DNA of 20,000 nucleotides from an uncultured virus (IMG/VR IMGVR_UViG_3300013137_000012) (lineage: Duplodnaviria; Heunggongvirae; Uroviricota; Caudoviricetes): the IMG/VR virus record IMGVR_UViG_3300013137_000012; one strand, given 5' to 3'. Numbering within the stretch: the first letter of the stretch is position 1; each line of letters begins with the position of its first letter. Below are positions 3,270 to 20,000 of this stretch, piece after piece. The notes under the pieces were generated by a model. The model was not told the DNA's origin and searched no databases. It saw only the letters and a program-made list of their open reading frames with translations. Made by a program: the position numbers and the translations under genes.

Positions 3270-3683
3270 ATGGATATTCAAAATCCCTCAAAACAATATA
3301 AAAAATCTAATACAGCAATTTATTCTTGTCAATATCATGTTGTTTTCTGTCCTAAGTATAGAAGAAGTATTTTTGTCGATGGAATCGACAAAAGACTTAA
3401 ACAACTTGTTCGTGAAAAATCTAAAATATGGAATTATGAAATATTAGATATGGAAGTAATGCCAGATCATGTTCATTTACTTCTTGATATTAATCCCAAA
3501 ATTGGTATCTATAATGTTATTAATCATATTAAGGGTTATGCTTCTAAGGTATTGAGAAAAGAATTTCCAAGTCTTAAGACTCGACTTCCGTGTTTATGGT
3601 CAAGAAGTAAGTTTATCAGTACAGTAGGTGCCGTTAGTCTAGAGACGGTTAAAAAATATATTGAGAATCAAAAAGGAAAATAA
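3270..3683 (+). CDS. tnpA: IS200/IS605 HUH (Y1) transposase TnpA
   Basis: YHVVFCPKYRR, HUH motif DHVHLL, LWSRSKF, catalytic Tyr in KKYIENQ. Confidence 0.97.
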   Translation: MDIQNPSKQYKKSNTAIYSCQYHVVFCPKYRRSIFVDGIDKRLKQLVREKSKIWNYEILDMEVMPDHVHLLLDINPKIGIYNVINHIKGYASKVLRKEFPSLKTRLPCLWSRSKFISTVGAVSLETVKKYIENQKGK

Positions 3684-3686
3684 CAC

Positions 3687-4961
3687 TTGACAAAATCTGA
3701 TATAATCAAAGAAACACTGAGACAAACACGATTAAAACGATCAACTCAAGATTGTAAGGTTTTTGAATTAAAAATAGATACTTCGCATATTTCTAACAAA
3801 AAACTCAATGATCTAAAACTTCTTTTTACTGAATCAAAATGGCTATATAATCATATTCTAAATCAGAAAAATATCTTTGATTTTGATACTAAAATAAGCG
3901 TGGTACAAGCATTAGATAAAGATAAAAATACTGTTGATAAAACACTATCAATAATTGGATCTCAAATTAAACAATCAATACATTCAAGAATTATAGATTC
4001 TATAATAGCATTATCAAAACTAAAAGAAAAACACTATAAAGTTGGAAAACTTAAATTTAAATCCAGAATAAAATCTATTCCTTTAAAACAATACGGAGTA
4101 ACTTTTAGATTTAATCCAACCAAACCAAACTATATAAAATTTCAAAACATTAAAGGTTATTTTAAGCTTAATGGTATTAAACAAATTCCACAAAATGCAG
4201 AAATAACAAATGCTATTTTAATTAATAAAAATAATAACTATTATATCAAATTAACTTGTTATATACAAAAAGAAACCAAGAATTTTTTAGAAAAAGAAAT
4301 AGGAATAGATTTTGGAATTCAAGATAATATCGTATTGTCTAATGGAGAAAAATTCAATATCAACATTCCAGAATCTACAAGAACTAGAAAACTAAGACGT
4401 AAATTATCTAGAAAACATGGATATAAAAAAGGACAGAAGAAATCCAAATCTTTTTATAAAAATCTAAATTTGATAAACGCATCTATAGATAAAATCAATA
4501 ATCAAAAGAAAGATTGCAAAAATAAAATTGTATCAAAAATAGTAAATAACTATGAAACAGTATGTGTTCAAGATGAAAATATTAAACAGTGGAAAGATGG
4601 GATGTTCGGTAAGCAAGTTCACAATTCTGTTTTGGGAGGAATAATGAAAGATTTGTGTGTCAAATCTCATACTCTCAAAATAGTTGATAAGTATATGCCT
4701 ACAACTCAATTATGTCCCGTTTGTTTTAAGCTAAATAAGATTAGTTTGAAACAAAGAGAATATATTTGTGAGTGTGGTTATAAAAATGATAGAGATATTC
4801 ATGCCGCTCAGAACATATTGAATATTGGCATGAACAGACTTGATATTAATAAAGTGTCTACGGAGTATAGACACTATAAATCTCCGATGGAGGGAATAGT
4901 CTCTGCTGTTGATTTAAACAGCAAGCTGTTTCTGTTGAAGTCGGAAGCCAACGTCCTTTAG
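3687..4961 (+). CDS. tnpB: RNA-guided endonuclease TnpB with variant RuvC-II motif
   Basis: TTG start 3 bp after tnpA. RuvC-I GIDFG (D208), RuvC-II region VQDEN, Zn finger CPVC...CECG, RuvC-III DRDIHAAQNIL (D370). Stop codon lies inside the right-end hairpin. Confidence 0.93.
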   Translation: MTKSDIIKETLRQTRLKRSTQDCKVFELKIDTSHISNKKLNDLKLLFTESKWLYNHILNQKNIFDFDTKISVVQALDKDKNTVDKTLSIIGSQIKQSIHSRIIDSIIALSKLKEKHYKVGKLKFKSRIKSIPLKQYGVTFRFNPTKPNYIKFQNIKGYFKLNGIKQIPQNAEITNAILINKNNNYYIKLTCYIQKETKNFLEKEIGIDFGIQDNIVLSNGEKFNINIPESTRTRKLRRKLSRKHGYKKGQKKSKSFYKNLNLINASIDKINNQKKDCKNKIVSKIVNNYETVCVQDENIKQWKDGMFGKQVHNSVLGGIMKDLCVKSHTLKIVDKYMPTTQLCPVCFKLNKISLKQREYICECGYKNDRDIHAAQNILNIGMNRLDINKVSTEYRHYKSPMEGIVSAVDLNSKLFLLKSEANVL

Positions 4962-6037: not shown

Positions 6038-7960
6038 ATGAAAAAATCTATTGAAGAGAGAATTAAATATCTGGAACATTGCGCAAATTTATATGAAACT
6101 AGTGGCAATAGTCCTCTTACGGATAATGAATATGATAAGGAATATGCAGAATTAAAGAAAATTGCTCCTGATAATTATTTCTTTTCTAAAGTAGGTGGAA
6201 TGGATGAAGCACATATTTATGGTACTAAATATACTCATAAATATACTATGGGAAGTTTAGAGAAAGATCCTAATCCCGATGAATTTGGTAATTGGTTTAA
6301 AAAGACTTATGAAAAAGATATAGATAAGGTTGTTGCTATCCTGCAATTAAAGGTTGATGGTAGCAGCTTTTGTTTGCATTATCAGGATGGGAAACTTATT
6401 AGGGCCGTAAGTCGTGGAAATGGACTTGTTGGATTGGATTATACAAAGAATGCAAAACACATAAGAGGAGTACTTGAAACAATTTCGGCTAGGGGTTATG
6501 TAGAAATTAAAGGCGAAGTATATAAAAACAAACAGGATTTTGAAAAGTATTTTGCAGAAGAATTTGCTAATGATCGCAATTTTACTGCTGGTGCTATAAA
6601 CCAGAAAGACCCATTAGTTACAAAAGAAAGGGGCTTGGATTTTGTAGCTTATGAAGTAAGAGGAATTGATTTCAAAACCGAAACAGAAAAAACCAAGTTC
6701 CTTATTGATAATGGTTTTGCCAATCTTGACGAATACACTTCTAAAATAAACTGTAAAGGAAAAACAGTTAAAGATGTGGTTGATTTTATTACTCTATTTA
6801 TGAATAATGTGGATAAAGAAAATCTTCCTTTTTCAATTGACGGCATAGTATTTAAGCTTGATGATATTGAATGGGCAGAATCTTTGGGAACAACAGATGA
6901 AGGTAAAAGACCTAAAAGTAATAGGGCTATTAAATTTCCAACAGAAATAAAAGAAACAATTCTAGAGGGTATAGAGTGGAGTGTTGGTAGAACTGGCGCA
7001 TTAACTCCCGTTGCTCTTCTACAACCTGTTCAATTGGCTGGAACTACTGTAAAAAGAGCCACTATTCATAATTTAAAAGAAATGGAAAGACTTGGCATTA
7101 ATAAGATAGGATGTACGGTAAAATTACAGAAATCCGGCGATATAATTCCTAAAATTTTGGAAATGACTAAGGCTGGAAATAAAAAAATAGAAGTTCCAGA
7201 AAATTGTCCATCGTGTAACAGCAAACTGGAATGGGACGATACTAATACAACAAAGTTCTGTCATAATAACATGTGTCCTTCTCAGGTTAATTCTTCTATT
7301 GAACATTATTTTAAAACCATTGATGTTCTTGGTATAGGTGAAGGTATTATAGAAAGGTTAATCAATAAAGAAAATAACATGGTTAATTCTATTTCAGACA
7401 TGTATACACTGAATAAGTATAAGTCGCAATTATCATCTATATTTGGTCCTAAAGCTACTGAGAATTTACTAGAAGCAATTAATTCTGTTAAAGAAATTTC
7501 ATTAGCTAAATTTATTGAAGCATTAGGAATAGGCAAAATTGGGCGTATGAGTAAGGATATAACAGAAATTGCGCCTACAGTAGAAGCAATAGATAAACTA
7601 ACTATACCGGATATATTGAATATTCATGGATTTGCTGAAATTAAAGCTAAAAACTTCATAGATGGTTGGAAAAGTCAAAGGAAAGAGATAGATAAACTGT
7701 TAAAACACATAAAAATACAGGAGGCTAAGAAAATGAGTGGTAAACTAAATGGTAATAGTTTTTGCATAACTGGAACATTATCTCGCCCAAGAAACGACTT
7801 TATTGCCATTATTGAAGAAAATGGTGGTAGATTTGCTTCTTCTGTATCCGCAAAATTAAATTTCCTAATCTGCGGGAGCGATTGCGGTAGTAAAAAAGAT
7901 AAAGCGGAGAAACTTGGAGTACAAATTATTTCTGAAGAGGAGTTTAATGAAATGCTATGA
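6038..7960 (+). CDS. ligA: NAD+-dependent DNA ligase
   Basis: Domain Ia (Y...DNEYD), MGSL, adenylation motif KVDG, SRGNG, GEVY, IDGIVFK, OB fold VGRTGALTPVA, SGDIIPKI, Zn finger CPSC..C..C, HhH repeats, C-terminal BRCT (FCITGTLS...KAEKLGV). Confidence 0.97.
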   Translation: MKKSIEERIKYLEHCANLYETSGNSPLTDNEYDKEYAELKKIAPDNYFFSKVGGMDEAHIYGTKYTHKYTMGSLEKDPNPDEFGNWFKKTYEKDIDKVVAILQLKVDGSSFCLHYQDGKLIRAVSRGNGLVGLDYTKNAKHIRGVLETISARGYVEIKGEVYKNKQDFEKYFAEEFANDRNFTAGAINQKDPLVTKERGLDFVAYEVRGIDFKTETEKTKFLIDNGFANLDEYTSKINCKGKTVKDVVDFITLFMNNVDKENLPFSIDGIVFKLDDIEWAESLGTTDEGKRPKSNRAIKFPTEIKETILEGIEWSVGRTGALTPVALLQPVQLAGTTVKRATIHNLKEMERLGINKIGCTVKLQKSGDIIPKILEMTKAGNKKIEVPENCPSCNSKLEWDDTNTTKFCHNNMCPSQVNSSIEHYFKTIDVLGIGEGIIERLINKENNMVNSISDMYTLNKYKSQLSSIFGPKATENLLEAINSVKEISLAKFIEALGIGKIGRMSKDITEIAPTVEAIDKLTIPDILNIHGFAEIKAKNFIDGWKSQRKEIDKLLKHIKIQEAKKMSGKLNGNSFCITGTLSRPRNDFIAIIEENGGRFASSVSAKLNFLICGSDCGSKKDKAEKLGVQIISEEEFNEML

Positions 7961-12554: not shown

Positions 12555-14747
12555 ATGAATCTTGAAATGTTAGAAAAATCAAACTGGATAATTTACAAAT
12601 GGCTTACAGGAAGTTATGCCTATGGAACAGCTATTGAGGGTAAATCAGACAAGGATTATCGTGGAATATTTGTGCTTCCTTTAAGTGAACGTGTTACTTT
12701 GAAATCTTCTATTCCCGAAGTAGGACAAGAAAAACCTGTAGATGTCAAGTATTATGAAGTGGAAAAATTCTTACAATTAGCACTTGATTGTAATCCTAAT
12801 ATTGTTGAATTTCTATTTCCCCCTTCTGATTGTATTGAAATTTGCACTCCTATTATGCAGATGATTATAGATAACAGGAATTTATTTATATCTAAAAAAG
12901 CGTTTCATACATTTTCCGGTTATGCTTACGCCCAAATTAAGAAGGCAAAGGGCGAGCATAAGTGGATAAACAACCCAAAACCCGAAAATCCACCCATTAG
13001 AGATGAGTTTTGTTGGGTAATTCCTTCAGAGTCAATGAGTTATGATGTAAAAAATATTCCGGCAAGACCTGTTTCGATTAACAAATCAGGCATAAATCTG
13101 GAAGAATATCATGCTGCCGGATTAGAGCATGTTTCAAATACCTTTAGACTTTATCATTATGGGAATAGTTCTAAGGGTGTATTTAGGAATAATAATTTAG
13201 TTTGTGAAAGCATTCCAATTGAAGATGAAGCCTCTAAATTTTGGGGATTTCTTATTTATAATGACGACGAATATCAAAAAGCCATGTTAGATTGGAAGAA
13301 TTATTGGACGTGGAAGAAAGAAAGAAACCCTAATAGATGGATAGCTCAAGAAAAAGGAGAGATCGATTTTGATTGTTATTTAGAAAAAGAAACGGAGTTT
13401 TTAACTAAAAATGGCTGGAAAAAATTTGACCATATTACAGAGTTAGATTTGTTGGCGACATTAAATAGAAAGCATAATTTGGTTTTTCAAAAGTTTAAGA
13501 ATAGATTTGTTAAAGAATATACGGGGGCCATTTACACCTATGAGAATAGGTTTACGAGATTTGCTGTTACGCCCAATCACAGGCTTTATGTTTCAGATTG
13601 CCATAGAAGTTTAAAAAATCATTTTTCAACAAAATATCTTCCGGCGTATAGCAATTGGCATTTTGAAACCTTTCAGCATTTAATTGACAGTAACAGAAGT
13701 CATAAACATATCTTGTTATCTCCTTATGTTGCCAATAAGAAGAAATACCCCATATCTGATAACGATATCATTTTAATGGGGTCTTTTTTATCTGAAGGAA
13801 GTGTGGTGTTTGATAAAAAGCATAATCCGAAAGAATTATATGTGGCACAAAATCGAGGGGGAAAACTTTGTGTATTTATGAATAAAATCAAGCCTGTTAA
13901 AAAATTTAATATAGCTATTACGTCTCATAAAAGAGATCATAGGGTTGAATTAACATATAGAATAAAAAATCCGTTAATTGCAACAACATATTTGAAAGAT
14001 TTTGGTCATGGTTGTAACAATAAACATTTAGCTGATTATGTCTTTAGTTTTTCTCCAAAACAAGTTGAATTATTTTTAAATACTCTTTTAGCGGGGGATG
14101 GTCATAGACATAAAAAAGGACATGTCGTTTATTATAGCACCTCTAAACAACTTATTGAAGACTTGCAAAGATTGTTATTTATTAATGGAAAAATTTCGCA
14201 AATTTATGGTTCGTATTTTTACAAAGATAAAATGTATCAAAAACTGCCAATTTACCAATTATTTATTCCTAAAACAAACAGACATGTGTGTGGTATGGTA
14301 AAATATTTTTCTCATTCAAAAGCGAATATAAAAAATAATAAGTTGTGTTTAGGGGTAAGAAAAAAACATGTTAGAAATCAAAAAATAGTTTGTTTTGAGG
14401 TGGATAATTCTATTTTAATCACTAGAAATAAAGGTAAAATAGCCATTCAGGGCAATTCAAAAAACATGCAACATTGTATTCGTTTAATTATTTCCGGTAA
14501 GAATATTTTAACAAAAGGTTATCCAATTGTTAGATTTGAGGGGGAACAGCTTCAATTTCTAAAAGATATTCGTGCTGGTAAATACGAATATGAATATCTT
14601 ATGGAATATGTAAAAAAAGAAATGAAAGCAATGGAAGAACTTTATGAAACAAGCACCCTTCCTTATAGTGCAGATCGTGATAAAATAGATAAATTATATA
14701 AGGAAATTGTATTTGAAAGGGAATATAACTATGATAATTATTTTTAA
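12555..14747 (+). CDS. Pol-beta-superfamily nucleotidyltransferase (RlaP/YcgL-like) interrupted by an intein
   Basis: GSYAYGT...SDKDYRGIF (GS..DxD motif), NPNIVEFLF, TFSGYAYAQIKKA. After splicing, IDFD|SKNMQHCIRL matches the family YDxK..H..RL motif. LKDIRAGKY near the C-terminus. RBS GGAGG. Confidence 0.9.
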   Translation: MNLEMLEKSNWIIYKWLTGSYAYGTAIEGKSDKDYRGIFVLPLSERVTLKSSIPEVGQEKPVDVKYYEVEKFLQLALDCNPNIVEFLFPPSDCIEICTPIMQMIIDNRNLFISKKAFHTFSGYAYAQIKKAKGEHKWINNPKPENPPIRDEFCWVIPSESMSYDVKNIPARPVSINKSGINLEEYHAAGLEHVSNTFRLYHYGNSSKGVFRNNNLVCESIPIEDEASKFWGFLIYNDDEYQKAMLDWKNYWTWKKERNPNRWIAQEKGEIDFDCYLEKETEFLTKNGWKKFDHITELDLLATLNRKHNLVFQKFKNRFVKEYTGAIYTYENRFTRFAVTPNHRLYVSDCHRSLKNHFSTKYLPAYSNWHFETFQHLIDSNRSHKHILLSPYVANKKKYPISDNDIILMGSFLSEGSVVFDKKHNPKELYVAQNRGGKLCVFMNKIKPVKKFNIAITSHKRDHRVELTYRIKNPLIATTYLKDFGHGCNNKHLADYVFSFSPKQVELFLNTLLAGDGHRHKKGHVVYYSTSKQLIEDLQRLLFINGKISQIYGSYFYKDKMYQKLPIYQLFIPKTNRHVCGMVKYFSHSKANIKNNKLCLGVRKKHVRNQKIVCFEVDNSILITRNKGKIAIQGNSKNMQHCIRLIISGKNILTKGYPIVRFEGEQLQFLKDIRAGKYEYEYLMEYVKKEMKAMEELYETSTLPYSADRDKIDKLYKEIVFEREYNYDNYF
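13374..14456 (+). mobile_element. Intein (361 aa, C274-N634) with LAGLIDADG homing endonuclease
   Basis: Block A CYLEKETEFLTKNGWK, block B VTPNHRLYV, LAGLIDADG-like LMGSFLSEGS and FLNTLLAGDGH, YYSTSKQLIEDLQRL, block F/G IVCFEVDN...IAIQGN followed by +1 Ser. Confidence 0.93.
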
Positions 14748-14768: not shown

Positions 14769-15527
14769 ATGGCTAGAAAATACTACTTTACCGATCATTT
14801 TATAACCAGGCTTCATGAGAGATTTCCAAAATTAGAAGTAAGTTGGGATAACAAAGATCAACTATATTTAGAACTTGAGAGTATATTGGAAAACAGTACG
14901 GAAGAAAAAGGCTATTTAAATACCGAATATATGCTTTATTTACAAAAAGAATATGGCGTAGAAACCAAATATGAATTTAGAGCAAATAGAGATTATGATT
15001 TATTGTTTGTTGTTGTTGATAAAAGAGCAATTACCTGTTGGAGATTAAATGAAAGTAATAATGTAATGGTGCATAAAAAGTTTGTTAAAAATAAGAATAT
15101 AGACAGGTCTGTATTTAATCCTAAAAGTCGTAATTTAAGAAGTATTATGAGCGAATATGAGGCACAAGCACAATATGAAGAAATGGTAAACAATGGACTA
15201 TATGAAGCAAATGAAAGACTTAATTTAATAACATATGAATTAATATATGCAAACGAAGAAATAGCAGCGATTAAATGTTTAAAATGTGATACTACAAGCA
15301 CAAGTAGGTTTAATATAGAAAACAGATATTGTAATAATTGCAAAGCGTTTCATGATGATCCTAAATTAAAAGAAAATAAAACCTATAAAATATTATTAAA
15401 TCAAGATAATAAAGAACATGCGATTAAATGTGGACGATGTGGAAAAACCAGTTATAATATTAATGATGTAAAAGAGAAATATTGTGGGTGCTGTAATATG
15501 TATCATGAGATGAGGATTAAAATATGA
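14769..15527 (+). CDS. Hypothetical protein: N-terminal HxxxRxxER domain plus two tandem C-terminal Zn-finger repeats
   Basis: TDHFITRLHERF; repeats AIKCLKCDTTS...RYCNNCKAFH and AIKCGRCGKTS...KYCGCCNMYH; RBS AAGGAGG. Confidence 0.8.
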   Translation: MARKYYFTDHFITRLHERFPKLEVSWDNKDQLYLELESILENSTEEKGYLNTEYMLYLQKEYGVETKYEFRANRDYDLLFVVVDKRAITCWRLNESNNVMVHKKFVKNKNIDRSVFNPKSRNLRSIMSEYEAQAQYEEMVNNGLYEANERLNLITYELIYANEEIAAIKCLKCDTTSTSRFNIENRYCNNCKAFHDDPKLKENKTYKILLNQDNKEHAIKCGRCGKTSYNINDVKEKYCGCCNMYHEMRIKI

Positions 15528-16066
15528 TAGAACAACTCAATAATTATGATTGGGAAGAGGCGTTTAAAATAATGGGAGTTAAAACTCTTGATGAGGCTTT
15601 TAACACTGATTTTGGCAGAGAAGATGTTGTTAAAATATACGGCATAAGAGAAGGAGAAAATGATGGAATTAATTGGCTTTTATTTGGTAGACTGAAAGAT
15701 AAGCGATATTTTTTCTTGAGCGGAGGATGTTGTTATACCTGTTGGGATTGTCAAGGTTATTGTAGCGTTGATGTGGCACTATCTAAAAAATTGCTTATTA
15801 GTGATGGATTAACAGATGAGGCGCGACAAGTATTTGGAATAAAAGAGAATAAAATTGGGACTATAAAAGTAAAAGAAGCAGTAGATAGAGGAAATGTCTA
15901 TAAAGATGTTGTTTGTCCCAAAGAAATTATAGATAATAAAGAAAAGATCTTAAATGACAAAGAAAAGCTACTTAATAAAAAAGAACAGATAATAAGCGAT
16001 TTTTGTAAGAAATTTAAGGAACTATGCGATAAAGAAAAAATATTTGACAAGTTAATTGGCGAATAA
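15524..16066 (+). CDS. Hypothetical protein with Cys-rich patch and KEK heptad tail
   Basis: 180-aa ORF, ATGA overlap, RBS GAGG; GGCCYTCWDCQGYC. Confidence 0.8.
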   Translation: MIEQLNNYDWEEAFKIMGVKTLDEAFNTDFGREDVVKIYGIREGENDGINWLLFGRLKDKRYFFLSGGCCYTCWDCQGYCSVDVALSKKLLISDGLTDEARQVFGIKENKIGTIKVKEAVDRGNVYKDVVCPKEIIDNKEKILNDKEKLLNKKEQIISDFCKKFKELCDKEKIFDKLIGE

Positions 16067-16088
16067 AAATCTGTAGTACAAGGGCAAT

Positions 16089-16625
16089 ATGGATATAATT
16101 TTCAGTAGAGACTGGGCTATGCCGAATTTAGATACCTTTTCTGTTAAGCCCATAGGTGATTTTGTCAAAAAGTATCTAAAAGAAAATATTATTTCTGTAG
16201 ATCCTTTTGCTAGAGATAAAGATTGGTTTACTTATACTAATGACTTAAATCCGAATACCAAAGCGCAATATCACTTAGATGCCGAAGAGTTTTGTAAAGT
16301 TTTGCAGGATAAAGGGTTAAAGGGTAAAGTAGATTTGGGAATTATGGATTCTCCGTATTCGCCCCGTCAAATTTCGGAGTGTTATAAACAAATCGGTAAG
16401 AAGGTTGCAATGGAAGATACACAATCATCTTTACTATATAAACGTGTTAGAGATGCTTTAGATCCTCTTATAAAAGAGAACGGTATTGTATTGAGTTTTG
16501 GATGGAATACTGTTGGCATGGGAATTAAACGTGGCTATGAAATAATTGAAATAAAATTGGTTTGTCATGGCGGTGCTCATAATGACACGATTTGCATGGC
16601 CGAAATTAAAAATTCCGTAATATAA
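16089..16625 (+). CDS. Small adenine-specific DNA methylase-like protein (catalytic motif DSPY instead of DPPY)
   Basis: VDPFA (SAM-binding motif I-like), NDLNP, DSPYSPRQISECY, SFGWN, LVCHGGAHNDTI. Confidence 0.75.
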   Translation: MDIIFSRDWAMPNLDTFSVKPIGDFVKKYLKENIISVDPFARDKDWFTYTNDLNPNTKAQYHLDAEEFCKVLQDKGLKGKVDLGIMDSPYSPRQISECYKQIGKKVAMEDTQSSLLYKRVRDALDPLIKENGIVLSFGWNTVGMGIKRGYEIIEIKLVCHGGAHNDTICMAEIKNSVI

Positions 16626-16633
16626 AATTAATA

Positions 16634-16662
16634 TTGACCTATTTAACACCCTATGATATGTT
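16634..16662 (+). promoter_or_regulatory. Sigma70-like extended -10 promoter P5
   Basis: TTGACC (16634-16639), 17-bp spacer ending TGa, TATGTT (16657-16662). Confidence 0.65.
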
Positions 16663-16686
16663 GTATCCGAAAGTGAAAAGTGTATC

Positions 16687-17175
16687 ATGGACAAGGCCGG
16701 AATATTACTTGGAAGATTTCAACCTCCACATTTGGGACATTTTCAATTAATACAGGAAATTTCTTATGAAAATGATGTGCTAATTATATGTATAGGTTCT
16801 TCTCAACTATCTGTTCCTTTCAATATAAATCAACGAAAAACAATTATAAGAAGGCAATTAGATAAACTTAATATAACCAACTATAAACTATATTCTTTTA
16901 AAGATCCTATGCCTATTGATTCATGGGTAAAAGTACTATATAAAACTTGTAATTTGTCACAATATGAACCTGTTACTTTATATCGTTCAGATAGAGATTT
17001 AGAATCGTTTGAAGAAGAAATATGGGACTTAAACATAAGGATTAAGTATGTAGCACGTAAACCCTTTTATTATTTAACAAGTGATGGATTTTATGTAAAG
17101 ATAAATTCTGCAACCGACTTAAGAAATATAGAGAAAAATATACGCTATAATGGAACGTGCTATTATGGAAAATAA
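16687..17175 (+). CDS. HxGH-class nucleotidyltransferase (NadM/NMN adenylyltransferase- or cytidylyltransferase-like)
   Basis: GRFQPPHLGH, IICIGSSQ, PF...R..II, C-terminal NSATDLR (SxT motif). Substrate cannot be assigned from sequence. Confidence 0.85.
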   Translation: MDKAGILLGRFQPPHLGHFQLIQEISYENDVLIICIGSSQLSVPFNINQRKTIIRRQLDKLNITNYKLYSFKDPMPIDSWVKVLYKTCNLSQYEPVTLYRSDRDLESFEEEIWDLNIRIKYVARKPFYYLTSDGFYVKINSATDLRNIEKNIRYNGTCYYGK

Positions 17176-18496
17176 ACTACATGGCAAATTAACATGGAGT
17201 GATTTTAATCCTGTTGATATTAGAAGCAATAAAAAGAATGACAGGATTATTGGTCTTACTTTTCCCATAAGCGATAAAAAATTAGGATTAGAGCCTTCAG
17301 TATTATCTGTATTGCCTGATGGAGATAATGTTGAATATTCGTGTGAAAACAGAATATTTAATGACAAAGATGTTAAATATTATGTCTGTTCAGTGTATAT
17401 AAGTGGTTATGAAGAATTTATTAAATGGTCATTACAACACGATAATAAAAAAATTATAGTGGGCGGTTATCATCCTACTACTTTTCCTAATGATTTTATT
17501 AAATATGCTGCTAAAATTGTTCAAGGTCCATGTGATGATTTTTATGCTACAATAGAACAAGTTGGACAAATAGTATCCGGTATAGTAACTCATAAGCATA
17601 TACCCCGAAGAGATTTATATGATCTGCGAATAAATCAGCAAATAATACCTGATAAGATGCCAGATGATATGGTTGCTTCAATTAATACTTCTATGGGTTG
17701 TGCAAATAATCCACCTTGTGATTTTTGTGCCAGTCCAATAATGTGTTCAAAAGTTATGTCCAGACCCATTGAAATTATTGAAAAAGAACTATATGACATA
17801 GAACACCAAGCGATTCGTTTTTTGGATTTTTTATTTATACGCGATGAGAATTTTACTATGCAACCTGATTGGGATATACGGTTAAAGCTTATTCATAATA
17901 TTTTTCCTATGACCAAATTATATCTTTTTGCTTCTGCTAATACATTAAACGAAGCTAAAATAAAATTTATGAAATCTCAAAATGTCTATATGTTATGTTT
18001 GGGATTAGAAGATCCTACTAAACAATATAAGAAAAATGAATCGTTAGATAGTGTTGTTGCTTTATTGAAAAAATATAAAATAATGACATATTTATCTTTT
18101 ATTGTTAACCCTTTAGAGATAATTGGAGCATCGGCAGGTAAAAATTATTATAAGATATTGATGAACAGAATTGAAGATTTAAAGCCTGAAATGATATGTG
18201 GTAATTTTCTAATGCCATTTCCAGGTACAAAATTATGGGATACTTATTATACTTATGTGGATATAGAGGATTATAAGTATTATGATTCCAAGACGCCTTT
18301 TTTGATACGTAATAAAACCGTTAGAGAGAAGATGAGATTCTTTATGTTTTTCTATCAATGGCAGTATTATATGTCTGATTTTTATAATACTAAGATAAGA
18401 AAATTTAATATTGGAGATACATTAAATCGTCGTTTTATAGAACTCAAGAAAGAATTTGATCAATTATATGAAGTTTATTGGGATAAAAGAGCATGA
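17150..18496 (+). CDS. Cobalamin-binding-domain radical SAM protein (class B-like) with CX5CX2C motif
   Basis: IIVGGYHPTTFP (B12-domain motif), TSMGCANNPPCDFC, DENFT, LGLED, PFPGTKLWD. Start 17150 or 17165, overlapping the upstream gene. Confidence 0.85.
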   Translation: MERAIMENKLHGKLTWSDFNPVDIRSNKKNDRIIGLTFPISDKKLGLEPSVLSVLPDGDNVEYSCENRIFNDKDVKYYVCSVYISGYEEFIKWSLQHDNKKIIVGGYHPTTFPNDFIKYAAKIVQGPCDDFYATIEQVGQIVSGIVTHKHIPRRDLYDLRINQQIIPDKMPDDMVASINTSMGCANNPPCDFCASPIMCSKVMSRPIEIIEKELYDIEHQAIRFLDFLFIRDENFTMQPDWDIRLKLIHNIFPMTKLYLFASANTLNEAKIKFMKSQNVYMLCLGLEDPTKQYKKNESLDSVVALLKKYKIMTYLSFIVNPLEIIGASAGKNYYKILMNRIEDLKPEMICGNFLMPFPGTKLWDTYYTYVDIEDYKYYDSKTPFLIRNKTVREKMRFFMFFYQWQYYMSDFYNTKIRKFNIGDTLNRRFIELKKEFDQLYEVYWDKRA

Positions 18497-19083
18497 AAAT
18501 AGTTGTTATTAATGGAAGTTATAGAAAAAATGGGTTCACTACTGCCTGTTTAAACGCTATTATTAAAAAGAAATATCCCAAAGATAATATAGTTAATTTC
18601 TTCCTTCAAAATGATATACATGCCTGTCAGTATTGTAAGAAATGTGAAGAGTGGTGTAGATATGAAGATCAATTCCAGAAGATAGTTAAAGAGATAATTG
18701 ATGCCAATATAGTATTAATTGGATCTCCTGTTTATAACGATATGCCAACTCCCAAGTTAATGGCTTTTCTTTCCCGATTATCTTTTATTGCTGAGAGAAA
18801 ACATAGAGAATTTACTAAAAATACACAGGTAGAAATATTGGCTGTTGGTTATTGTAGCGGCACCAAATCAACAATACATTCAATAATGGGAGCGTGTGAA
18901 ATGGCAGGATTTGATATAATGGGACGTTCTACCAGAGAATATGTAATTTTGTGGAAAGATGGTAAAATAAGAGGTGGAAGAAACGCACAAGATACAATCA
19001 TATTAGATAATAATGTTTTGAACAAATTGAATAAACAGTATCTTGACTCCGATTATTTCAAACACATGCTTAATAAAAAATAA
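18493..19083 (+). CDS. Flavodoxin-fold iron-sulfur flavoprotein / NAD(P)H-dependent FMN reductase family
   Basis: INGSYRKNGFT (FMN phosphate loop), CQYCKKCEEWC (CX2CX2CX3C), IGSPVY; ATGA overlap with the radical SAM gene. Confidence 0.88.
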   Translation: MKIVVINGSYRKNGFTTACLNAIIKKKYPKDNIVNFFLQNDIHACQYCKKCEEWCRYEDQFQKIVKEIIDANIVLIGSPVYNDMPTPKLMAFLSRLSFIAERKHREFTKNTQVEILAVGYCSGTKSTIHSIMGACEMAGFDIMGRSTREYVILWKDGKIRGGRNAQDTIILDNNVLNKLNKQYLDSDYFKHMLNKK

Positions 19084-19103
19084 AAATTGTAATATTTTTG
19101 ATA

Positions 19104-19132
19104 TTGACGTGTTTTATGGCTCGTGATACCAT
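19104..19132 (+). promoter_or_regulatory. Sigma70-like extended -10 promoter P6
   Basis: TTGACG (19104-19109), 17-bp spacer ending TGa, TACCAT (19127-19132). Confidence 0.7.
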
Positions 19133-19153
19133 GTAGCTAACAATAGGTAAATT

Positions 19154-19348
19154 ATGATTGAAATTTCTAAAGGCAAAGTGATTGATATGGGACATTGTAA
19201 TTGTTGTCCTGCTACTAGTGTTTATGATAATGTGTATGAAATAGTGTTAATAATTGACGGTATGAAACAAAGTGTGTCTTTCAGGCTTTGTTTGCAGCAT
19301 TTGAAAGAACTGGAATCAAAAATAAAATACGTAAAGAGGTTTGGATAA
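19154..19348 (+). CDS. Small Zn-binding-like hypothetical protein (CNCC...CLQH)
   Basis: 64-aa ORF, RBS AGGT, TAATG overlap with the RNA ligase gene. Confidence 0.7.
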   Translation: MIEISKGKVIDMGHCNCCPATSVYDNVYEIVLIIDGMKQSVSFRLCLQHLKELESKIKYVKRFG

Positions 19349-20000
19349 TGGATACTAAACTTGCTACAATTCAAGAAATAGAAACTTTAAGCCCTATTCC
19401 TGATGCTGATAGAATTGAGGTTGCAACTATTAAAGGAATGGCGTGGAAAGTCGTAGTGAAGAAAAATGAATTCAAGGTTGGTGATCCATGTATTTATTGT
19501 ATGATCGATACTGTATTGCCTGAAAAACCCGAATTTGAATTTCTTAAAAAAGTAAAATATAGAATAAAGACCTGTAAGCTAAAAAAAACCGTTTCGCAGG
19601 GTATTATTTTCCCATTATCTATTATTCCTCCTAATACTTATACACTTAATCAGGACGTGTCAGAAATTTTGGGCATAAAAAAATACTTAAAAGAGATTCC
19701 TGCAAGTATGTCGGGAGAAATAAAAGGTAATTTCCCCTCTTATGTACCGAAAACAGATGGAATATTAGTAGAATCTGTAGTAGGCGTGTTAGATGAAATA
19801 AAGAATTTAGAAGTATATATAACTATTAAGTGCGATGGAACTTCTGCTACTTATTCTAATTTGAATGGAGAAATAGATGTGTGTTCTCGCAATTGGTCTA
19901 TGAAAAAGCCAGAAGATATCAAATCAAACGTATATTGGGAAATGGAAAACAAGTATAATATTATAGAAAAACTTAAAAGTGCTGGTAATTATGCTATTTC
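19348..20000 (+). CDS. RNA ligase, DRB0094/Rnl5-like family (5' part; runs off the window, absent from the ORF track)
   Basis: Open frame from ATG 19348: KLATIQEIETLSPIPDADRIEVA...WKVVVKKNEFKVGD...IDTVLP...SQG...GNFPSYVPKTD...ITIKCDGTS...VCSRN. KxDG adenylation motif plus the family's N-terminal OB-like domain. Confidence 0.88.
   Translation, partial: MDTKLATIQEIETLSPIPDADRIEVATIKGMAWKVVVKKNEFKVGDPCIYCMIDTVLPEKPEFEFLKKVKYRIKTCKLKKTVSQGIIFPLSIIPPNTYTLNQDVSEILGIKKYLKEIPASMSGEIKGNFPSYVPKTDGILVESVVGVLDEIKNLEVYITIKCDGTSATYSNLNGEIDVCSRNWSMKKPEDIKSNVYWEMENKYNIIEKLKSAGNYAI

Follow-up and report, generated by a model that had tools for sequence, protein, structure and literature searches.

What would a phage gain from a cluster of three overlapping genes that encode an NMNAT-like adenylyltransferase (NTase), a radical SAM enzyme, and an Fe-S flavoprotein? 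An earlier note on this DNA had proposed a module in which the NTase adds a nucleotide handle, the radical SAM enzyme alters the activated molecule, and the flavoprotein supplies electrons, with DNA/RNA hypermodification, an NAD-related product, or an antimetabolite as possible outputs. We followed up this proposal in the window, meaning the whole 20,000-nucleotide stretch of DNA that was analyzed. The window probably represents a phage from lake water and belongs to a record of 20,885 bp, of which at most about 0.9 kb lies beyond the window on either side. The 20,885-bp contig is present in sequencing run X1, its likely source, and short identical pieces of it were seen in two other lake-water runs. 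On balance, our analysis leans toward a phage-carried NAD-metabolism module with a radical step rather than toward a DNA/RNA hypermodification system.

Gene organization of the triad

The three genes were confirmed as overlapping ORFs on the same strand and together span about 2.4 kb (Table 1). The NTase and radical SAM genes overlap by 26 nt, or by 11 nt if the alternative ATG at 17165 is used, which would yield a 443-aa form of the radical SAM protein, and the radical SAM and flavoprotein genes overlap by 4 nt. The domain calls made for all three genes hold: PF01467 and GRFQPPHLGH in the NTase, a three-Cys motif in the radical SAM protein, and PF03358 with CxxCxxCxxxC in the flavoprotein.

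Table 1 Features of the triad, its flanking promoter candidates, and the NAD-dependent ligase gene of the window
Feature	Position	Strand	Remarks
NAD-dependent DNA ligase	6038..7960	+	640 aa; phrog_3869 at E 6e-151; outside operon
Candidate sigma-70-like promoter, upstream of triad	16634..16662	+	TTGACC-17-TG-TATGTT; consensus match only, 9/12 positions
NMNAT-like adenylyltransferase (NTase)	16687..17175	+	162 aa ORF; PF01467
Radical SAM enzyme	17150..18496	+	448 aa ORF; uncharacterised family
Fe-S flavoprotein, FMN-reductase family	18493..19083	+	196 aa ORF; PF03358
Candidate sigma-70-like promoter, downstream of triad	19104..19132	+	TTGACG-17-TG-TACCAT; consensus match only

The triad had also been described as bounded by promoters. 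Consensus-level matches do lie in both flanking gaps, the upstream one within the 61-nt gap 5' of the NTase gene, but sigma-70-like sites as a class are not above chance in the window (42 vs 34.5 ± 5.2 in shuffled sequences). The shared 8-mer ATATTGAC is present in three copies against 1.2 expected, a count reached in 24 of 200 shuffles. No terminator-like sites were found in the scan that accompanied the promoter search. Delimitation of the triad by these putative promoters is plausible from the sequence.

Because base composition is even over the whole window, there is no sign that the triad was captured recently. INPHARED (GenBank phages) contained neither a DNA match to positions 16000-19500 nor a tblastn match to the radical SAM protein. 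Profile matches bore out the flanking genes reported before, a DNA methyltransferase-like gene (phrog_11619) and an RNA ligase; the latter and an RlaP nucleotidyltransferase are RNA-repair-type genes that surround the triad. The window also encodes an NAD-dependent DNA ligase, a type of enzyme that consumes NAD+ and produces NMN. Among the window ORFs, there was no match to NadV, Adps, Namat, a PRPP-synthetase-like protein, PnuC, or the NadR kinase.

The NTase resembles archaeal NMNATs

The NTase matches PF01467 at E 1.4e-6. Residues 9-18, GRFQPPHLGH, fit the GRFQPxHxGH pattern and contain the (H/T)xGH motif for ATP binding, and Gly9, His15, Gly17, and His18 are invariant within the subfamily. 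Among solved structures, its best relatives are archaeal NMNATs (4yp7, 1ej2, and 1f9a), which match residues 3-67 at E 4e-9. Like the enzymes of M. jannaschii (MJ0541, 1f9a) and M. thermautotrophicus (1ej2), which are about 165-180 aa and thus similar in size, the NTase has GRFQPxHxGH, IGSxQ, and a C-terminal SATDLR, a motif of the SxxxxR type. However, the significant alignment to archaeal NMNATs is confined to residues 3-67, and the NCBIfam NMNAT models TIGR01527 and NF002243 give scores well below their equivalog cut-offs (42.8 bits vs 181.2 and 50.7 vs 127), which places the protein, as judged by these models, as NMNAT-like but outside the archaeal-type NMNAT equivalog. An alignment of 12 subfamily sequences at 31-41% identity kept GRFQPxHxGH, IGSxQ, DP..W, and YRxD, and the motifs DPxPIDxW, YRSD, and PFYY..PDGxY set the subfamily apart from archaeal NMNATs. 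The NTase can be assigned on these grounds to a divergent archaeal-type subfamily with motifs of its own. A word-index search with the NTase returned nothing beyond the NTase itself.

All top matches of the NTase are NMNATs, with CoaD, RibF, and cytidylyltransferase models far lower. This pattern counts against the NTase activating a molecule outside NAD metabolism, such as a phosphonate or a sugar or glycerol phosphate, for methylation or rearrangement by the radical SAM enzyme into a hypermodification donor or an antimetabolite. Such a scheme would suit the methyltransferase-like gene and RNA ligase beside the module, as well as the fold-level likeness of the radical SAM protein to Fom3- and OxsB-type enzymes (OxsB, Z 19). 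However, the same methyltransferase-like gene and RNA ligase gave 0 hits in related loci, and no DNA-modification, phosphonate, or natural-product genes recur beside the radical SAM-flavoprotein pair in the loci surveyed. The DNA/RNA hypermodification, phosphonate-type, and antimetabolite-type products put forward earlier therefore lose ground, and we regard a nucleotide handle of this kind as very improbable.

The radical SAM protein belongs to an unnamed family

Searches with the radical SAM protein found 340 homologues, the best at 55-66% identity, and the protein falls within a tightly conserved, unnamed family. Across 66 sequences, C184-x5-C190-x2-C193 is invariant, as are Cys80, Cys128, Cys283, and Cys350, which are candidate ligands of an auxiliary Fe-S cluster; the three-Cys spacing is Cx5Cx2C in the window protein, whereas most relatives have CxxxCxxC. 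The window protein had no Pfam hit at E <= 0.01, neither to PF04055 nor to PF02310. Among the matches listed, PF04055 is present in most of 120 relatives, and PF02310 occurs in 57-90% of the members of its ESM Atlas neighbor clusters. NCBIfam returned weak hits to RimO, MiaB, PhpK, HpnR, and BchE models, and the BFVD viral structures gave hits of at most 18% identity, all to generic radical SAM proteins and none to a close relative. No fused or longer forms were found at E <= 1e-10, which is weak evidence; long ORFs in three loci (L028, L032, and L106), considered as fusions, look like extensions or an insertion and are uninformative.

The predicted structure (pLDDT 91.1) combines a Rossmann-like N-domain with a radical SAM barrel and aligns to many radical SAM structures, with Z 13-27 among the 50 matches listed. 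The three-Cys motif and a partial TIM-barrel core, found in the sequence and the model, respectively, together mark the protein as a predicted member of the radical SAM superfamily. Among the matches listed, the closest structure is AprD4 (PDB 6fd2; Z 26.6, 369 residues, rmsd 3.5, model residues 31-414, 14% identity), a radical SAM 1,2-diol dehydratase of apramycin biosynthesis that works with the reductase AprD3 and has the same two-domain plan. AprD3 is an NAD(P)H dehydrogenase that acts on the product and is not an Fe-S flavoprotein. AprD4 further differs from the window enzyme in having an aminoglycoside substrate and no link to NAD genes. The Rossmann-like N-domain of the window protein has the cobalamin-domain fold, which AprD4 shares, and AprD4 binds no cobalamin according to a review (PMC12931638). 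Nearly tied with AprD4 is the cobalamin-dependent methylase MgmA/QCMT (9ccb; Z 25.3 over 351 residues), followed by MiaB, TsrM (Z 20.3), CysS (Z 20.2), and RimO at about Z 20-21. OxsB and TokK matched as well, and MgmA, TsrM, CysS, TokK, and OxsB all align to the model from about residue 30. The window protein differs from these cobalamin-dependent methylases in giving no hit to PF02310 or PF04055; peptides, proteins, and antibiotics are the substrates known for the methylases.

The fold matches to MiaB, RimO, and the protein methylase MgmA, together with the NCBIfam hits to RimO and MiaB models, lend some weight to a radical SAM enzyme that acts outside NAD metabolism, on tRNA, rRNA, protein, or another small molecule, either as a MiaB/RimO-like thiotransferase or as a B12-type methylase. 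The RNA-repair-type neighbors in the window would fit such a role. MiaB and RimO have three N-domain Cys residues for an auxiliary cluster and a C-terminal TRAM; in the window protein, two invariant Cys residues (Cys80 and Cys128) lie in the N-domain. Against such a role, Pfam detected neither TRAM nor any other domain that binds RNA, and the model, the C terminus of which is helical, shows none either.

The flavoprotein as a probable reductase partner

The flavoprotein matches PF03358 at E 4.7e-16 (59.2 bits vs a cut-off of 24), and its model (pLDDT 94) has a flavodoxin-like fold with SsuE, MsuE, WrbA, and RosB as top matches. It carries C45-xx-C48-xx-C51-xxx-C55, and a compact four-Cys [4Fe-4S] motif of this type is the hallmark of iron-sulfur flavoproteins (ISF). 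In 26 sequences, Cys45 and Cys55 are invariant, Cys48 and Cys51 are at least 90% conserved, and Cys121 is nearly invariant.

In the set drawn from genomes and IMG/VR, 18 of 38 loci carry the flavoprotein gene immediately 3' of the radical SAM gene. With metagenome loci added, loci dereplicated at 85% identity, and enough downstream DNA required, the same adjacency is seen in 28 of 57 groups. This conserved pairing agrees with the suggestion that the flavoprotein is a dedicated reductant, and judging from sequence and gene order, it probably serves the radical SAM enzyme as a reductase. We know of no Fe-S motif in the flavin part of eukaryotic TYW1. TYW1 (PMC8941971) nevertheless shows that a radical SAM enzyme can come with a flavoprotein module of its own; it differs from the triad in that its parts are fused rather than encoded by separate genes and its substrate is tRNA.

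Gene neighborhoods link the pair to NAD genes

The radical SAM family was found in huge-phage contigs, candidate-phyla bacteria, small archaea, and gut bacteria. NAD genes within 6 kb of the radical SAM gene were counted in 36 groups, each with 3 kb or more of flanking DNA on either side, and representatives were run against Pfam and NCBIfam to check the family labels. Of the 36 groups, 22 had one or more NAD genes, or 20 without the Nudix-only cases; as a rough estimate, the background is below about 10% per random 13-kb stretch for a 1-Mb genome with about eight such genes. The groups contain NMNAT-type genes (12), nicotinamidase (9), NaPRT/NadV (8), Nudix (8), NadE (6), NAD kinase (4), NadD (3), and NadB, PRPP synthetase, and PncC (2 each). 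NadA, NadC, and NrtR are also among the NAD neighbors. In the radical SAM tree, NAD neighbors are scattered over its whole extent. Of the outputs proposed earlier, the NAD-related one is the only one to gain support from these counts.

Gene order and content vary among loci. The order of the window, NTase-radical SAM-flavoprotein, recurs in L055 and L104, and radical SAM-flavoprotein-NTase is found in L063, L025, L083, L108, L122, L088, L021, and L109. In L109, the genes for Nudix, NadE, NadA, NadC, NadB, a DraG-like hydrolase, NAD kinase, the radical SAM enzyme, the flavoprotein, an NMNAT-like protein, and NadD stand together, whereas L064 holds NadE, NAD kinase, NaPRT, nicotinamidase, the radical SAM gene, and the flavoprotein. 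The gut-type locus L013 contains PncA, PncB, a NudE-like Nudix, the radical SAM gene, NadE, PRPP synthetase, NadD, and PncC, and an NrtR-like gene lies downstream in its sibling loci L006, L008, L011, and L014 (gut-type labels were checked on L009, L011, L012, and L013). The huge-phage locus L048 has LigA, an NMNAT-Nudix protein, NadV, CoaB, and CoaC alongside the radical SAM gene; LigA here is an NAD-dependent ligase, as in the window.

The expectation that the NTase would be a conserved neighbor stood in part: an NMNAT-type gene is present in 12 of the 36 groups, but the triad is not universal. The window-type NTase subfamily occurs in nine groups. Where an NMNAT gene follows the pair, it belongs, in different clades, to one of two unrelated lineages: the archaeal-like window type or the NadR type of L009. 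In many loci, the pair is present but the special NTase is not, and a search of five genomes in which no NTase adjoins the pair turned up only weak N-terminal matches to the window type.

The neighborhoods also bear on action outside NAD metabolism, in which case NAD genes would lie nearby through the packing of cofactor genes or the flavoprotein's use of NAD(P)H. In favor of this alternative, 14 of the 36 well-flanked groups have no NAD gene within 6 kb, and in L048, a CCA/polyA polymerase adjoins the radical SAM gene together with the CoA genes. The pair also sits amid unrelated genes in Gastranaerophilales-type loci (L017-L022 and L112). However, the NAD linkage is repeated across many clades and gene orders, and the surveyed loci have no recurrent neighbor gene for an RNA or protein substrate. 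We consider a role outside NAD metabolism decidedly unlikely.

Related loci and genomes argue against replacement of a known NAD enzyme

Several known NAD enzymes were considered as functions that the radical SAM enzyme might replace. L109 has NadA, NadB, and NadC, L048 has NadV, and many loci have both PncA and PncB; the radical SAM enzyme is therefore not a substitute for any of them. Replacement of a phosphoribosyltransferase also fails as a general rule, with a PF04095 gene present in five of ten genomes (G001, G003, G005, G007, and G009); in addition, an archaeal-type phosphoribosyltransferase was identified in G010 by NF006415, a model run on five genomes. G002, G004, and G008, genomes of uncertain completeness, had no pyridine phosphoribosyltransferase, strong NadE match, or PnuC, although G002 and G004 gave NAD-synthase hits that were weak and fell on the Pfam cut-off or close to it. 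The radical SAM gene, too, is missing from their sister genomes, and the apparent pathway hole is weak evidence.

Of the 201 genomes that were sampled in its phylum, the Saccharibacteria genome G002 alone has a member of the radical SAM family. The family is rare, patchy, and frequent on phage-like contigs; at this rarity, the enzyme does not perform a general housekeeping step. The linked NTase of G002 is probably an ordinary NMNAT, because no other NMNAT/NadD candidate was found there.

Such an ordinary NMNAT weighs against a further possibility, namely that a modified pyridine dinucleotide is what the module produces or processes. Here, the radical SAM enzyme would alter NMN, NaMN, or NAD, by ribose dehydration as in AprD4 or viperin or by C-methylation as in B12-type enzymes, and the NTase would adenylylate the altered mononucleotide to an NAD analogue, for example one that NAD-cleaving defense or toxin enzymes could not cut. 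Several observations are consistent with this possibility. The window-type NTase forms a distinct subfamily far below the NMNAT cut-offs and stands alongside a bona fide NadD in L109, where a methyltransferase is fused to the NMNAT-like region; L029 and L034 have class I methyltransferases beside their radical SAM genes; the structure that the model matches best is that of a diol dehydratase; and the sporadic distribution of the family is like that of conflict genes. However, the pair also occurs within canonical salvage operons with NrtR-like regulators and, in many loci, without the special NTase. We know of no NAD analogue of this kind, and we judge its synthesis to be unlikely.

Comparison with phage NAD pathways

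Phages reconstitute NAD+ by NARP1 (Adps and Namat), NARP2 (NadV and NMNAT), and NARP3 (PnuC and NadR), as described in the accessible parts of bioRxiv 10.1101/2024.02.11.579819 and PMC13464706, in which the term "radical SAM" does not appear. As far as these parts go, the NARP pathways resemble the triad in being phage-borne NAD-building genes that include an NMNAT, whereas none of the three has a radical SAM enzyme or a flavoprotein. The gene pairs that define NARP1, NARP2, and NARP3 are not present in the window, which has the NMNAT-like gene alone, while L048 carries the NARP2 parts, NadV and NMNAT-Nudix, beside its radical SAM gene. A search of the open-access literature found no description of the radical SAM family or of a radical SAM enzyme in NAD salvage, nor any account of the module.

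Proposed mechanism and significance

In the NAD-metabolism module that we favor, the NTase would join a mononucleotide and ATP into NAD+ or NaAD as an NMN/NaMN adenylyltransferase. The radical SAM [4Fe-4S] cluster would be held by Cys184, Cys190, and Cys193 and would convert SAM to a 5'-deoxyadenosyl radical, which may attack a pyridine nucleotide or a compound that closely precedes it or arises from its breakdown. Electrons would probably pass from NAD(P)H to the FMN of the flavoprotein and on to the radical SAM cluster, presumably with the two proteins in contact. The radical step, perhaps a diol dehydration as in AprD4 or a methylation as in MgmA, could convert a pyridine nucleotide or nucleoside form that ordinary salvage cannot use to NMN or NaMN, which the adenylyltransferase, or PncC and NadD in other loci, would return to the NAD pool. 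In the phage, such a module may keep NAD+ available for the NAD-dependent ligase and against NAD-depleting defenses.

The routes of NAD biosynthesis and salvage are considered completely charted, and to our knowledge none of their steps uses a radical SAM enzyme. The conserved radical SAM-flavoprotein pair nevertheless stands inside NAD operons, some of them with NrtR-like regulators and complete de novo or salvage sets, and it adjoins NAD genes on phage contigs as well. If this link is functional, it would point to an unrecognized pyridine-nucleotide reaction in small-genome anaerobes and phages, which might be an entry into salvage, serve repair, or make an analogue. Since the module is small, with three genes, its function lends itself to a direct test in which the genes are co-expressed and metabolites analyzed.

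In phages, defense and counter-defense are known to clash over the supply of NAD. A bolder proposal, which we hold to be doubtful, is that the enzyme performs a radical SAM reaction that would be the first of its kind in pyridine-nucleotide metabolism, remodeling the ribose or ring of NMN/NAD with the flavoprotein and, together with the NTase, giving a non-canonical NAD resistant to NAD-cleaving immune enzymes and toxins or recovering NAD from their product. If true, it would constitute a fourth, chemically new phage NAD counter-defense, shared with small-genome anaerobes.

Architecture of the triad and its proteins

Three overlapping genes on the same strand, as the earlier note had described, occupy 16687-19083 of the window and encode an NMNAT-like nucleotidyltransferase (NTase), a radical SAM enzyme, and an Fe-S flavoprotein. 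The NTase and radical SAM reading frames overlap by 26 nt, or by 11 nt with the start at 17165, which gives the 443-aa form found in the protein database; the radical SAM and flavoprotein frames overlap by 4 nt. The proposal that two promoters bound the triad as a unit is borne out to the extent that each flanking gap contains a sigma-70-like site, with an identical 8-mer ahead of both. However, such sites number 42 in the window versus 34.5 ± 5.2 in shuffled sequence, and the 8-mer occurs three times versus 1.2 expected, a count equalled in 24 of 200 shuffles. With neither commoner than chance allows, a single promoter-bounded unit is plausible at most. No terminator-like sites were found. 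At 19109, 19129, 19137, and 19145, the window departs from contigs of two sequencing runs, X1 (the likely source run, from lake water) and X2; all four positions lie in or directly after the downstream promoter-like site. GC content is even across the window (0.28-0.34) and thus does not mark the triad as a recent insertion.

The radical SAM protein has no Pfam match of its own but 340 homologues, the best 120 of which are 43-66% identical to it. Seven cysteines (C80, C128, C184, C190, C193, C283, and C350) are invariant across 66 sequences; C184, C190, and C193 form the radical SAM cluster motif, spaced Cx5Cx2C in the window and CxxxCxxC in most relatives. Its confident AlphaFold model (pLDDT 91.1) aligns over both domains with AprD4 (Z 26.6) and MgmA (Z 25.3), followed by MiaB, TsrM, CysS, and RimO (Z ~20) and OxsB (Z 19). 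The B12-type architecture claimed for the enzyme is therefore confirmed at the fold level. This does not imply cobalamin binding, since AprD4 has the same kind of N-terminal domain and, according to a review (PMC12931638), does not bind cobalamin.

The flavoprotein belongs to the FMN-reductase family (Pfam), with a conserved CxxCxxCxxxC motif and a flavodoxin-like predicted model. The NTase matches PF01467, whereas the archaeal, NadR, and NadM NMNAT models match below their cut-offs, and its solved relatives are archaeal NMNATs only (E 4e-9, residues 3-67). It represents a distinct subfamily of ~160 aa with conserved GRFQPxHxGH, IGSxQ, DP..W, and YRxD motifs and a C-terminal SSAxxIR-like motif.

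Coordinates of features in the window and in related loci
Feature	Location	Size	Remarks
NMNAT-like NTase	window 16687-17175	162 aa	ORF; same strand as other two triad genes
Radical SAM enzyme	window 17150-18496	448 aa	ORF; same strand; alternative ATG 17165
Fe-S flavoprotein	window 18493-19083	196 aa	ORF; same strand
TnpA and TnpB, IS200/IS605-type pair	window 3270-4961	137 and 424 aa	phrog_2577, phrog_506
NAD-dependent DNA ligase	window 6038-7960	640 aa	full-length
RlaP-family nucleotidyltransferase	window 12555-14747	730 aa	LAGLIDADG_3 domain at residues 504-556
Zinc-ribbon-like protein	window 14769-15527	252 aa	two C-terminal CxxC...CxxC repeats
Second small radical SAM gene	L087:2092-3069		weak MoaA, viperin, PFL-activase model matches
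Second small radical SAM gene	L109:11375-12241		weak MoaA, viperin, PFL-activase model matches
Second small radical SAM gene	L064:3872-4795		weak MoaA, viperin, PFL-activase model matches
NAD cluster	L109:371-13748		31.7-kb metagenome contig
Radical SAM gene with methyltransferase and hydrolase	L029:6361-8541
Radical SAM gene with methyltransferase and hydrolase	L034:4015-5804

Neighbourhood of the radical SAM gene

Pattern scans recovered at least 46 loci in species-representative genomes (35 with full-length relatives), at least 3 in IMG/VR (contigs of 212-416 kb), and at least 79 in metagenomes. The radical SAM gene was located by script in 118 of 129 records, including the window, and these fell into 71 groups at 85% identity. 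The flavoprotein gene proved to be a conserved neighbour: among the 57 groups that extend at least 700 bp downstream, 28 have it as the next gene downstream, in the same orientation.

NAD genes were counted in the 36 groups whose radical SAM gene is flanked by at least 3 kb on each side, a sample that leaves out the other 35, including the window. Families were detected with HMMs from self-made seeds and named by Pfam/NCBIfam matches of representatives. A NAD gene lies within 6 kb in 22/36 groups, or 20/36 without Nudix-only cases; by a rough estimate, fewer than ~10% of random 13-kb stretches of such genomes would carry one. The families were NMNAT-type (12 groups), nicotinamidase (9), NaPRT/NadV and Nudix (8 each), NadE (6), NAD kinase (4), NadD (3), NadB, PRPP synthetase, and PncC (2 each), and LigA (1). 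Across the radical SAM tree, most of the major branches have NAD neighbours. The linkage includes two different NMNAT lineages, the NMNAT-type class comprising six window-type, two NadR-type, two NMNAT-Nudix fusions, and two others. An NMNAT-type NTase is a recurrent neighbour, but the triad is not obligatory: in five genomes where no NTase adjoins the radical SAM-flavoprotein pair, the window-type NTase was matched only weakly and at its N-terminus. The remaining 14 of the 36 groups have no NAD gene within 6 kb.

The NAD cluster of metagenome locus L109 is unusually complete, encoding Nudix, NadE, NadA, NadC, NadB, a DraG-like ADP-ribosylglycohydrolase, and NAD kinase together with the radical SAM enzyme, flavoprotein, NMNAT-like protein, NadD, and a second, MoaA/viperin-like radical SAM protein. 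Since NadA is present, the enzyme is not a NadA substitute, and the NTase here coexists with NadD. Second small radical SAM proteins (~290-325 aa) occur near the main gene in three groups. A 501-aa protein encoded on the opposite strand of L109 combines an NMNAT-like region with a class I methyltransferase. In the mutually unrelated loci L029 and L034, the radical SAM gene is flanked by genes for a class I SAM methyltransferase and a DUF1749 alpha/beta-hydrolase, followed in L034 by NAD kinase, NaPRT, and nicotinamidase.

The near-identical gut-type operons (L013, L006-L014, and L027) encode PncA (nicotinamidase), PncB (NaPRT), a NudE-like Nudix protein, NadE, PRPP synthetase, NadD, and PncC alongside the radical SAM enzyme, with an NrtR-like gene downstream in L006, L008, L011, and L014. 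The operon is the whole route from ADP-ribose and nicotinamide to NAD, plus one unexplained member. In a sister type (L009/L088), a flavoprotein and a NadR-type NMNAT are inserted behind the radical SAM gene. An 804-kb contig (L064) carries NadE, NAD kinase, NaPRT, nicotinamidase, and the pair, and the huge-phage locus L048 carries LigA, NMNAT-Nudix, NadV, CoaB, CoaC, and the radical SAM gene.

Distribution and genome content

Near-identical gut loci sit in MAGs labelled Bacilli, Tenericutes, Clostridia, and Muribaculaceae, which suggests mis-binning or a mobile element; bin labels may be wrong. L070 (RIIA, RIIB) and L087 (tail protein) are clearly phage, and L033 has terminase and portal genes close upstream. 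L072 and L117 have weaker phage-family matches only (polymerase; PHROGs of unknown function), and L013 and L088 appear cellular. Look-alike clusters in the ESM Atlas are 85-97% viral. GenBank phages gave no match to the radical SAM protein. In a sample of 201 genomes of the phylum to which the Saccharibacteria genome G002 belongs, the family was found in G002 alone. Such rare and patchy occurrence is what a mobile accessory module would show, rather than a core pathway.

The G002 operon encodes the radical SAM enzyme, flavoprotein, NTase, and NAD kinase. Because this NTase is the sole NMNAT/NadD candidate found in G002, gene content suggests that it is a working NMNAT. No NaPRT/NadV, NadC, PnuC, or strong NadE was found in G002 or in two further genomes with relatives, G004 and G008; G002 and G004 have weak NAD-synthase matches at or near the Pfam cut-off. 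These gaps are a weak argument that the radical SAM enzyme supplies the NTase substrate: the genomes may be incomplete, and the same gap would be expected in relatives that lack the enzyme.

Other genes of the window

The window comes from a 20,885-bp lake-water metagenome contig that is probably phage. All sizeable ORFs share one strand, and for many of them the match is to a PHROG family of unknown function. No structural or packaging genes were found within the 20 kb. NAD-dependent DNA ligase, which the window encodes, consumes NAD+ and releases NMN, from which NMNAT can rebuild NAD+. A ligase of this type also adjoins the NAD genes of L048. The best GenBank phage matches of the RlaP-family protein are Lak megaphages (34% identical along 96% of its length). 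Its PHROG nucleotidyltransferase match falls in two separate stretches, so the LAGLIDADG_3 domain looks like an intein or homing-endonuclease insertion. The zinc-ribbon-like protein has a weak, sub-threshold match to ribosomal protein L37e and could be placed in no family. Besides the transposase pair of the window, TnpB-like genes occur close to the radical SAM gene at L108, L119, and L090, and in L106 a truncated radical SAM gene is fused in frame behind a 220-aa N-terminal stretch.

A putative role in NAD metabolism

The earlier note had envisaged DNA/RNA hypermodification or an antimetabolite as possible outputs. These find no support, because the window's methyltransferase-like and RNA ligase genes (both family matches) do not recur beside the pair in related loci. 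Synthesis of a modified NAD by the triad is the main rival: the special NTase subfamily, the methyltransferase neighbours in L029, L034, and L109, and the conflict-like distribution of the family speak for it, and we regard it as unlikely. A substrate outside NAD metabolism is possible but still less likely. In full-text literature searches, neither this family nor a radical SAM enzyme acting in NAD salvage was found described, and the term 'radical SAM' was not found in the NARP1/2 preprint (bioRxiv 10.1101/2024.02.11.579819) or the NARP3 paper (PMC13464706).

We lean, with slightly better than even confidence, toward a NAD module as a whole. The substrate of the radical SAM enzyme would be a pyridine nucleotide or something closely related to one, the flavoprotein would serve as the enzyme's reductase, and the product would be carried into NAD by the NTase or by PncC and NadD. 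The mechanism we favour is a previously unrecognised route into NMN or NaMN, by salvage or by repair.
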